Below, piece by piece: positions 28,202 through 30,688 of a stretch of 48,435 nucleotides of DNA; position 1 is the first letter of the stretch; each line of letters starts with the position of its first letter. The DNA comes from Escherichia phage EcoIv28_Lewi, in sequence record OX461087, one strand, 5' to 3'. The notes beneath the pieces were generated by a model. That model was not told where the DNA came from, ran no database searches, and was given only the letters and a program-made list of their open reading frames with translations. A program made the translations under genes and the position numbers.

Positions 28202-30688
28202 TCACGATGGCGAGATGACATATTCGTACATATCGTCACTGTACTCGCTCATGGTGAGAGTTGTCGTTCCGTCGCTTCCGGGATTCTTCTGACTGACAAC
28301 CCATAGAGTAGTATCAAGTTCCTTCTCCGTGCTCAGCACGTAACGAGATTCAGATTGTACGTTTGTTCCATCCCATATATTTAGCTGAAAATCAGAAGGC
28401 AGGTCGCAGGTGAATGTATGTAAACCAGTGACTGTGGCTGGCAATCTGTCTGACACGCTGCCGTCAGAACTGGTAATCACAACATAAAGATTATCATCAG
28501 CGGTTAGCTGCTCGCTGGTCGTGAATACATTTCCGTTGCGCGCTTCAATAACGCCAGTCTGTTGCACGTCGTCATACATATCGACGACCTGAATCATGTC
28601 ACCAACGTTAACCCATTCACCATCTGCCAGCGCTTTAATTTCCATGCTGCGGCGTGAATAAATCAGGCGGCGACACTCAAGGATTGCACGGTCAACAGCT
28701 TGATAGCGATTGCGAACATAAAGCATGTCGAATTTCTTCGCTTTAGTTGGCTCACCTTCTGCTATTCCGCTGCCTGTGATGCGATAGTAAACGTTGGCTT
28801 GCTTATTGGTTGTTGGGTCACGATACTCGACGTTAACGCCATCGTAAGTACCAGGAAGGCTGATGTCATAACTCAGCTTATAACCGTCGCTCTGCGTGTT
28901 TCTGGTGTTGAATACAGTTGCCGGATATTCTCGTTTTTCATCACGAGAAAAACTCATTACCCCATCATCCCAGAATGCGGTAACACGCGCAGCATCGCAG
29001 ATGGTCTGCAAACGTTCGCCGATGCTCTTATCCTCATCGTCAAACGTGTAATCGAAATAACCAAGTCGCTCATCAGGCAGGCTGTCGGCAATTTCATACA
29101 GCTTCACTATGTCGATGGTATTTTCTGGATTGCCAGCGGTAATCAGCCAGTTATGCAGAACTGCATCAGCAAAGCTGCGTGAAGGTGAAAGCGTATATCG
29201 CACGGTGCCAGTATCGCGATTATATCCGATGGTGTGACGTGTAATTAAAGCATTATATTTCCTGTCACGGCTGCCTGTTGCGTTTTCCGTAGCTCGCACA
29301 ACCACCTTCACCACTGTATCATCTGGATATGAGACGTTAGTGCGCGTGACGATTGAGTGAATTTCCTCAAGCTGAAGAATTGACGTGTCGGAACTGTTGT
29401 TTGTTCGGCGCATCTGAATCGCGTAGCGACCGGCGCCAGCTGATGGCGTTAACTTGATCGTGTAGTAGAACGTATCGTTTCTGTCCACGTCCTGATAATA
29501 GTTCATCGACTGATACGTCCCGGGAATCTGAACGTTATCGTCGTCAATCTTCCACCACTCAATGAACACGCTGAAATCATTTCCATCATTGGTCTGGTGT
29601 TGTAGGTGCACCCATAACTGATCACCGTCAATCGGTGAAAAGTACGGGCCAGAAACAATCGGCTGGTTATCTGTCAGGTTGAAATAGGTGTTATTAATCG
29701 TCACGCCATTCAGTGATGATATTGGCGCACCTGAGTAGTTGATGCTGTTAATAATAAATGTGTACCAGTAGTTTACTGGTGGCAATCCGCCATCATCAGT
29801 CTCAGTTGCGGAGACAAGTCTTCCTGATAGCGTGACGTTTTCGGTTACAGATGCGCCACCTCCTTGCGCATAAGTTATATTCAGCTTGAATACCACGTCA
29901 TGAGGCATGGTTAAGTCAACGAAGTAATCAAATGCCGAATCCTTCGGTATCTTGACTGCAATCTGACCACCAGCGAACTCAGTTTCTGTAACCGTGTTTG
30001 TTGTTGCAGTTTCAATAACCACTGGCGGTGGGTCAGTATCCAGTTCGTTTGGTCCATACAGTTCCTGACCGTCAACATCATCAAATGCGTAAGGTTCATA
30101 CACAACCGGAATAACCTCTCCAGGCTGATAAATGGTGTAACTCGCGCCAGCCAGTGAACCGAGGTTTGATTCCGAGTAACGCACGGATGACACATCATAC
30201 TTGCCGAGGCCAAAGTTCATGAACTCGGTGACATATTTAATATTGTTGATGTATTCGAATAATGATTCCTGAAGCAAGTCAGGGAATGCGCGAATTTGTC
30301 CGAAGTTATCAGGTCGCGCCTCGCCGTTACGAGCAATATTGGTTTGCGACTTCAGACTGGTATTCGGTGATGTTTTTGAACTGGTGTCAGTTTTTGGCGT
30401 TGATACTTTCGGTGTAAGAAAAGAGAATATTTTCGTTACCGGCTTCAGGATTGCGCCGATAAGGTCGCCGATTGCGCCAGATGGCTGACAGTAAACGTTG
30501 ACCACGTCACCATCTCGCAGGCAGAAAGAAAGCTCATCATCTTCACCAAGCACTCTGCCATTTATCGCAATTGAAATACTGGCAGGAAGATTTGTTTTAT
30601 TTAGCCATTTCCACAGGTTAGTTCCCGCAGGAACAACCCCTGTTTCTTTCGGCGTTCCCGGCATCTTCTGAACATGAATTACTGGCAT
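28202..30688 (-). CDS. tail tip protein: gpI-like N-terminus fused to a gpJ-like host-specificity region
   Basis: N-terminus has a lambda gpI-like layout (ubiquitin-like segment then hydrophobic stretch); the rest resembles the central region of lambda J. Confidence 0.65.

Follow-up and report, generated by a model that had tools for sequence, protein, structure and literature searches.

Analysis of a 48,435-nucleotide stretch of DNA from Escherichia phage EcoIv28_Lewi (sequence record OX461087; this whole stretch is called the window below) was focused on the gene at 28202..30688. Its product is read, with a probability of roughly 0.88, as the baseplate-hub or tail-tip protein of a Cedarrivervirus-like (Sf11-like) siphophage, in which the counterparts of the phage lambda tail proteins I (gpI) and J (gpJ) are naturally fused in one chain. 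A ubiquitin-like domain and a plug segment related to gpI are followed, without a stop, by a hub body of the gpJ type.

The list of open reading frames (ORFs) contained an uninterrupted frame of 828 codons with an ATG start, situated exactly at 28202..30688 on the minus strand, and the plus-strand translation of the same interval is interrupted by stops throughout. A preliminary description of the sequence had placed a gene for 828 aa at these coordinates; position and length were recovered as described, but the strand is the minus one. M1 is likely the start of the protein: AAGG is found ~10 nt 5' of the ATG, conservation of M1, P2, G11 and P13 among homologues reaches 90% or more, and the first predicted beta-strand already covers residues 3-7. 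From end to end the protein matched phrog_469 ('tail protein'; residues 1-824, E 3.5e-255), as well as chain E of PDB entry 9OCC, the 'putative tail protein gp14' of the Shigella siphophage Sf11 (1841 bits over 828 residues). The gp14 protein described by Subramanian, Dover & Parent (J Virol 2025, PMC12724387) has the same length of 828 aa, ~97% identity and the same gene neighbourhood, with essentially no difference between the two. At the nucleotide level the tail-tip cassette is 85-89% identical to that of Sf11, a member of the genus Cedarrivervirus, and of many phages of Salmonella and Escherichia, with a value of 87% for the cassette shared with the Sf11 type.

The supposed passage of a gpI-like part into a J-like body without a stop was borne out by the continuous ORF and by the cryo-electron microscopy (cryo-EM) model of Sf11, where both parts belong to a single chain. 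The check for a frameshift or stop in homologues, which had also been proposed, gave a single gene of 824-837 aa at 54-94% identity, and the relatives at greater distance, from Aeromonas, 9NA-like, Kagunavirus and Jerseyvirus phages, likewise have one gene of 828-855 aa. A profile of the N-terminal 189 positions matched 1004 cluster representatives at E <=1e-3, of which 205 remained at E <=1e-10. Among the best 150 representatives, 101 are 718-1890 aa long and carry the match at their N-terminus, the short ones resembling fragments; uninterrupted, the fusion is present in more than 100 diverse protein clusters. From its recurrence across phage genera, metagenomic loci and cluster representatives it follows that the fusion is common and old. 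It could be argued that a sequencing frameshift or a misjoined ORF has produced an artificial fusion of truly separate I and J genes, and some database entries are indeed truncated or frameshifted after ~170-270 residues. However, neither in the window nor in hundreds of independent genomes is the ORF interrupted, and the Sf11 cryo-EM chain (residues 81-827) crosses the I/J junction, which leaves the artefact a negligible chance.

Other arrangements of gpI were noticed in the databases. In the proteins P0146, P0150, P0151, P0154, P0167 and P0187, gpI is combined in one chain with an NlpC/P60, JAB or gpL-type (PF05100) domain. Most of them form single-member clusters, and they could represent real K-I fusions, as in Iyer et al. 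(cited below), or frameshift artefacts across the K/I overlap. In Burkholderia phage phiBtTUL1a (locus L008, 301-885) the annotation divides an intact gpI-like ORF of ~190 aa between two small hypothetical proteins and puts the start of J inside this ORF.

The gpI-like N-terminus

Structure prediction was performed with AlphaFold2 (AF2) on alignments of at least 45% identity. In the model of residues 1-150, residues 1-70 reached a predicted local distance difference test score (pLDDT) of 84-91 and showed a beta-beta-alpha-beta-beta topology (strands at 3-7 and 15-18, helix at 25-31, strands at 38-42 and 62-67), followed by a helix at 72-87; the remainder is disordered in the monomer. A Foldseek search of residues 1-70 against the PDB returned, among its top 50 matches, almost exclusively MoaD, ThiS, TtuB, SAMP, Urm1, SUMO and ubiquitin, the best ones being MoaD (3rpf_C, probability 1.00) and TtuB (5gha_H, template modelling (TM) score 0.74), with SAMP1 also among them. 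The structure prediction proposed in the preliminary description thus gave a beta-grasp that matches proteins of the ubiquitin fold. Hidden Markov models (HMMs) matched the N-terminus weakly (Pfam ThiS, E 0.0063; TIGR01687 MoaD, E 0.044, sub-threshold), the family profile found a weak match to the MoaD-like protein Ta0895 among PDB sequences, and several orthologues carry the NCBI name 'MoaD/ThiS family protein'. In 101 long representatives of 50%-identity clusters P69 and G71 are ~80% conserved; together with D61 and the C-terminal motif described below they are the best conserved positions of the N-terminal region. Based on the model, residues 1-71 can be assigned with high confidence to a MoaD/ThiS-type ubiquitin-like beta-grasp.

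The second gpI-like element, residues 92-140, is the most conserved stretch of the N-terminus (SPNxSLKxQTNxARxGEARPDxFGxxRxFPDL). Over the 101 representatives the consensus reads SPNN-L-GQTN-AR--(Q/E)A-PD--G----YPDL, and S107, N109, N117, R120, D127, G130 and P136 are invariant down to relatives of 24-33% identity. By BLASTP, residues 87-133 were aligned with residues 151-197 of lambda gpI (30% identity, E 2e-5), and phmmer matched the chains of gpI in 9E7M, a structure of the Ur-lambda tip. Profile-profile comparison by hhalign gave a probability of 56.6% (E 1.1e-4) for the narrow family profile of the N-terminus against close homologues of gpI. For a comparison of diverse profiles, fused members from Aeromonas phage Avpd1, 9NA-like SP069, Kagunavirus Bas70 and Jerseyvirus SP-101 were added on one side, and 14 stand-alone gpI sequences from lambda, T1-like, Mannheimia, Pectobacterium, Pseudomonas, Vibrio, Psychrobacter and Burkholderia phages were taken on the other. 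The probability was then 92.6% (E 4.5e-7), with residues 37-138 of the protein in the window collinear with residues 59-202 of gpI, an alignment which spans the last beta-grasp strands, the terminal Gly, a hydrophobic stretch and the C-terminal motif. When the same family profile was compared with the N-termini of J as a control, there was no match (probability 1.1%), by which the possibility that residues 88-138 are the usual N-terminal motif of J was ruled out. Since the profile matches gpI and not the J N-termini, residues 92-140 are taken as derived from I and not as the usual start of J. The gpI-like N-terminus of ~150 residues proposed earlier is confirmed by these comparisons, with an extent of about residues 1-140.

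Between both elements, residues 72-91 form a single short helix in place of the two hydrophobic helices which follow the ubiquitin-like domain in lambda gpI. The linker from Gly71 to the SPN motif, as counted from the alignment, is 36 aa long here and 30-51 aa in the 101 fused representatives, against 61-80 aa in gpI proteins that stand alone. In this hub protein the helix is amphipathic (Kyte-Doolittle 19-residue maximum 1.36), and it is strongly hydrophobic in 89 of the 101 fused relatives (maximum of at least 1.6). In the AF2 monomer the plug segment is disordered, and in the full-length model residues 69-134 have a pLDDT below 50.

Hub body and place in the tail tip

Residues 141-828 were identified as a hub body of the J type by a family HMM and by fold comparison. 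The NCBIfam model NF040662 ('host specificity factor TipJ family') matched residues 356-822 with 454 bits against a cut-off of 140. The full-length AF2 model (mean pLDDT 76.7, with only the tether 69-134 poor) retrieved by Foldseek, in this order, 9OCC (9occ_E), lambda gpJ, T1 (9L9P, chain S), the pb3 proteins of DT57C and T5, and Chi (8VJH, chain A). The E-value was 1.7e-25 for lambda gpJ (8K35, chain A) and 7e-10 for T5 pb3, and the ~600-residue hub-only chains of open-state gpJ (8XCG, chains J/F/Z) gave TM scores of 0.61-0.62 normalised to the target. These NCBIfam and Foldseek results were needed to establish the kinship, because a family-profile search of PDB sequences yielded only 9OCC and the weak Ta0895 match, with neither Chi nor lambda J among the matches. 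Many further Foldseek matches of low TM score (E ~1e-5, TM 0.08-0.17) to birnavirus VP2 capsid proteins probably reflect predicted jelly-roll or beta-sandwich insertions in the hub.

The J-like nature of the body agrees with the preliminary description, but its assignment to the central part of lambda J does not: BLASTP aligned residues 560-773 with J 339-560, and nothing in the hub protein could be aligned by BLASTP with lambda J past about residue 620. The body is the N-terminal hub half of J (approximately its first 600 residues) and not its centre. The FNIII string, the coiled fibre and the receptor-binding (LamB-binding) domain of J are absent, as the protein ends after the hub domains. 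Longer members of the fused family carry Pfam Phage-tail_3 and FNIII-A_GpJ together with variable C-terminal modules such as RCC1-like propellers and ConA-like lectin domains.

In the Sf11 virion gp14 is the 'baseplate hub 2 protein', present in three copies and modelled as one chain over residues 81-827 (PMC12724387). Its trimer is located at the tail tip together with the BH1P protein (gp16), the distal tail protein (DTP, gp17) and the C-terminal end of TMP (the tape measure protein, gp18), of which residues 749-780, a C-terminal helix, were modelled (PMC12724387). In lambda, residues 135-223 of gpI form a tripod in the lumen of the tip, which lies below the coiled coil of gpH and is connected to gpJ through three beta-sheet augmentations. 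Besides an N-terminal domain that is unresolved, lambda gpI has two helices, a plug (159-175) and threading strands, and its plug falls away upon opening of the hub domains. The hub protein's N-terminal region in the Aeromonas siphophage Avs-1 was reported to resemble the lumenal plug of gpI (Viruses 2026, PMC13612043). From lambda gpI and the Avs-1 paper we infer, by analogy, a lumenal place for residues 81-140. Residues 92-140 would make up a plug with three legs, placed under the C-terminal TMP helices and stitched to the hub domains by strand addition, and with the plug supplied in cis the ratio of I to J would be fixed at 1:1. In Sf11 the DTP serves as the tailspike adaptor, and the tailspikes on it bind the O-antigen (PMC12724387). 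Here, too, the tailspikes on the DTP and not the hub protein would bind the receptor, and the J fibre may be missing because receptor binding has moved to the tailspikes. The ubiquitin-like domain could act as an assembly-time module working with the NlpC/P60 peptidase encoded by the adjacent gene.

Several points weigh against the reading as an I-J fusion. The Pfam family PF06805 (Lambda_tail_I) did not match the whole protein, residues 1-91 or residues 1-172, even at E <=10; taken literally, the HMM check proposed in the preliminary description therefore failed to find a gpI domain, the kinship being revealed by profile-profile and fold comparison only. The NCBIfam scan gave no Lambda_tail_I match either, the direct HMMs yielding only sub-threshold ThiS/MoaD matches, and a word-indexed protein search with residues 1-172 returned fragments or frameshifted copies of the fused family and no stand-alone gpI. 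The link to gpI rests on the 47-residue BLAST match, on profile-profile alignment and on the predicted fold, profiles (Neff ~3) and models alike being built from sequences of modest diversity. With one amphipathic helix, the outer-membrane insertion proposed for helices H1/H2 of gpI may not apply here. In the body, Pfam Phage-tail_3 stayed below threshold (13.3 bits against 23), and the lumenal position is drawn from lambda and Avs-1, the latter being likened through its paper's description and through an Aeromonas veronii phage with this cassette. It could also be considered that the beta-grasp is a generic MoaD/ThiS-like domain, acquired independently of gpI and followed by a merely J-type N-terminus at residues 87-138, which would agree with the lack of a Pfam Lambda_tail_I match and with ThiS/MoaD as the only direct HMM matches. 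This is very improbable, since the profile-profile comparison aligns both sub-domains collinearly with stand-alone gpI, J N-termini give no match in the control, and the gene occupies exactly the place of I, overlapping a K-like gene.

The fused hub shares with lambda I and J the order of ubiquitin-like beta-grasp, conserved Gly, hydrophobic helix, plug/threading segment and J hub domains, as well as the position after, and overlapping, a K-type peptidase gene. In lambda, however, I (~200 aa, between K and J) and J are separate genes, whereas in the window there is one ORF of 828 aa and no separate J, and the K homologue is without a JAB domain. In T5 pb3 hub and plug also belong to one chain, with a plug tripod at the location of gpI, but there the plug lies as an insert within the HDII-insertion domain and HDI is fused as well; in the hub described here the plug is N-terminal and preceded by the ubiquitin-like domain, and HDI is in the separate BH1P. 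By the description in its paper, Avs-1 gp23 is alike in that a helix of the DTP holds the spike (PMC13612043), and Aeromonas veronii phage Avpd1 has the same cassette with a hub of 29% identity.

The type of fusion is already known and the arrangement is not unusual: it was catalogued in 2006 and was seen in Sf11 by cryo-EM in 2025 and in Avs-1 in 2026. Iyer, Burroughs & Aravind (Genome Biol 2006, 7:R60, PMC1779556) described the ubiquitin-like domain of tail assembly protein I, with TAPI-C behind a Gly-rich linker. They also described TAPI-TAPJ fusions adjoining JAB-less NlpC peptidases in operons with a further gene for a beta-strand-rich protein 'Z' (PMC1779556). As in that cassette, the adjacent peptidase in the window is NlpC/P60 only, without JAB; the difference is that the cassettes of 2006 were found in prophages and this one in a virulent-type phage genome. 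Protein 'Z' is presumed to be the DUF1833/BH1P protein of the window. The discovery value is small, as these proteins already bear the NCBI names 'MoaD/ThiS family' or 'TipJ family', and cryo-EM has provided the structure of a protein with 97% identity. In the text and supplement legends of the Sf11 paper neither gpI nor ubiquitin is mentioned, nor is the peptidase gene (PMC12724387). Added here are the links of the unmodelled first 80 residues of Sf11 gp14 to the gpI ubiquitin-like domain and of its ordered residues 81 to ~140 to the lambda gpI plug, and an intact peptidase gene in Sf11 that is missing from the RefSeq annotation.

The adjacent peptidase and the fate of the ubiquitin-like domain

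Starting with the ATG at 31067, the peptidase gene shares its final 71 nt with the beginning of the hub gene; the corresponding K/I overlap in lambda measures 103 nt. The Cys-His-His triad of the enzyme, with the Cys in a DCWG motif, is the same in all of 10 very divergent homologues, among them lambda K with its NlpC/P60 half, and an NlpC/P60-only peptidase was also found at 8 other loci. In Sf11 a tblastn search located the gene (locus L015, 2832-3275, minus strand) with 91% identity over 148 aa, although it is absent from the RefSeq annotation of this phage. From its sequence, the gene lying unannotated between Sf11 gp14 and gp16 appears intact and is predicted to encode a catalytically competent enzyme. 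Because it is unannotated in the RefSeq record, the peptidase may have been outside the protein set used for mass spectrometry of Sf11, and it may not have been considered in that structural study. The RefSeq record lists instead a 177-nt 'gp15' on the opposite strand.

An annotation detail of lambda K was noted as well. In NC_001416 (locus L002, 4134-4876) what appears to be the first half of the JAB domain (…AESCGFVV…) lies upstream of the annotated K start in another frame, and the annotated K of 199 aa begins just before the HSHPGG motif. This mismatch could be due to a frameshift in the reference or to an annotation problem.

Two courses were weighed for the ubiquitin-like domain. According to the first, it would be removed during assembly of the tip by the gpK-like NlpC/P60 peptidase, in the manner of a deubiquitinase, at or just after Pro69-x-Gly71, leaving a mature start at about residue 72-81. 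The order of the Sf11 chain from residue 81, with residues 1-80 unmodelled in the virion, would fit such a cut, as would the resolved part of lambda gpI, whose first residue is 101, right behind S99-G100-G101, where the ubiquitin-like domain of gpI ends. Few positions of the domain are as well conserved over the 101 clusters as P69 and G71, the peptidase triad is invariant while the rest of the sequence has almost fully diverged, and the peptidase gene always adjoins the hub gene. Iyer et al. predicted such processing (PMC1779556), and gpK is absent from lambda virions. On the other hand, direct evidence of cleavage is lacking in any phage, a flexibly tethered domain would be equally invisible by cryo-EM, and Iyer et al. 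attributed the cut to the JAB domain, which is absent here. As a rule, enzymes of the NlpC/P60 type act as amidases or peptidases on the cell wall, so that this one could have another substrate, and the mass-spectrometry table of Sf11 is given without peptide coverage. Removal of the domain is regarded as possible, at clearly less than even odds.

According to the second course, the domain would stay covalently attached and mobile, serving as an intramolecular chaperone or docking handle in assembly, or being set free together with the plug when the phage infects; the peptidase would then act elsewhere, e.g. in processing of the tape measure or on peptidoglycan. This agrees with the AF2 monomer, in which the domain is a unit of its own and the tether that holds it (residues 69-134) was modelled with low confidence (pLDDT below 50). 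It also agrees with the lambda papers, in which the N-terminal domain of gpI is called 'unresolved' and not absent, gpI was found in virions by mass spectrometry, and one paper speculates on a periplasmic role of the domain. However, three 8-kDa domains on a segment in the narrow closed lumen would presumably need room of which the published descriptions say nothing, and the strong conservation of Pro-x-Gly and of the peptidase triad would be left unexplained. Retention is given a chance only slightly short of even.

A more specific and rather unlikely proposal is that the fused hub is a precursor, whose ubiquitin-like head would be cut at Pro-x-Gly by the JAB-less NlpC/P60 peptidase, a phage-encoded maturation resembling the ubiquitin/deubiquitinase system that would license insertion of the plug. 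If true, the hub would shift from 92 kDa to ~84 kDa, and the roles of the gpI ubiquitin-like domain and of gpK in lambda-type tails could be settled. In the literature consulted no experiment was found on clipping of the ubiquitin-like domain during tail assembly, for which this group of phages would be convenient, as I and J are in one chain.

Neighbourhood of the hub gene

The features discussed above and the neighbouring tail genes are collected in Table 1.

Table 1. Coordinates (positions in the window) of the hub gene, its parts and the neighbouring tail genes.
Feature	Position	Strand	Basis
Whole gene, 828-aa tail-tip hub, gpI-gpJ fusion, orthologue of Sf11 gp14/BH2P	28202..30688	-	ORF list, phrog_469, PDB 9occ_E
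Ubiquitin-like (MoaD/ThiS-type beta-grasp) domain ending in conserved Pro69-x-Gly71, residues 1-71	30476..30688	-	AF2, Foldseek, weak ThiS HMM
Single helix in place of hydrophobic helices H1/H2 of lambda gpI, residues 72-91	30416..30475	-	AF2 helix 72-87/90
TAPI-C-like 'plug and threading strands' segment, residues 92-140	30269..30415	-	BLASTP, phmmer, hhalign
gpJ/TipJ-type hub body (HDII to HDIV with insertions), residues 141-828	28205..30268	-	Foldseek, BLASTP
NF040662 (TipJ-family related, attach_TipJ_rel) region, residues 356-822	28223..29623	-	NCBIfam, E 4.8e-136
gpK-like NlpC/P60-only cysteine peptidase, 149 aa, no JAB	30618..31067	-	Pfam NLPC_P60, E 9.6e-9
BH1P (DUF1833), hub protein in the gpL position	31060..31530	-	phrog_396, E 2.4e-42; weak DUF1833 match
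DTP with C-terminal appendage	31546..32925	-	phrog_384/11600; role of Sf11 gp17
TMP	32925..35267	-	Pfam TMP_3, E 3e-58
Tailspike, receptor-binding protein of this tail type	26312..28162	-	Pfam Tail_spike_N, E 8e-20; function of Sf11 tailspike

The gene order TMP, DTP, DUF1833, NlpC/P60-only peptidase and fused hub is shared by the window, four phage genera and all four metagenomic loci compared. These loci originate from groundwater, sediment and other samples, and in one of the four the small protein is on record without a Pfam match. Aeromonas, Nonanavirus, Kagunavirus and Jerseyvirus phages again show the order DUF1833, small NlpC/P60 and fused hub, and in the cassette loci compared the DUF1833/BH1P gene is always located just upstream. 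The large C-terminal appendage of the DTP matched, besides PHROG 11600, the NCBIfam 'phage head spike fiber domain' (GTA_spike_fiber, E 2e-28).

The tailspike differs from that of Sf11 over most of its length. Nucleotide similarity to the Sf11-like phages begins at about position 27782 of the window, and the region 25500-27781 is different. The Tail_spike_N part is common to these phages, and most of the remaining tailspike and the ORF downstream of it differ, which, on the sequence comparison, looks like the swap of a host-range module. The latter ORF (259 aa, TTG start, 25510-26289, minus strand) lies directly downstream of the tailspike gene and could be assigned to no convincing family, its best match being phrog_5986 with E 0.002; its product could be a candidate tailspike-associated or second receptor-binding protein.

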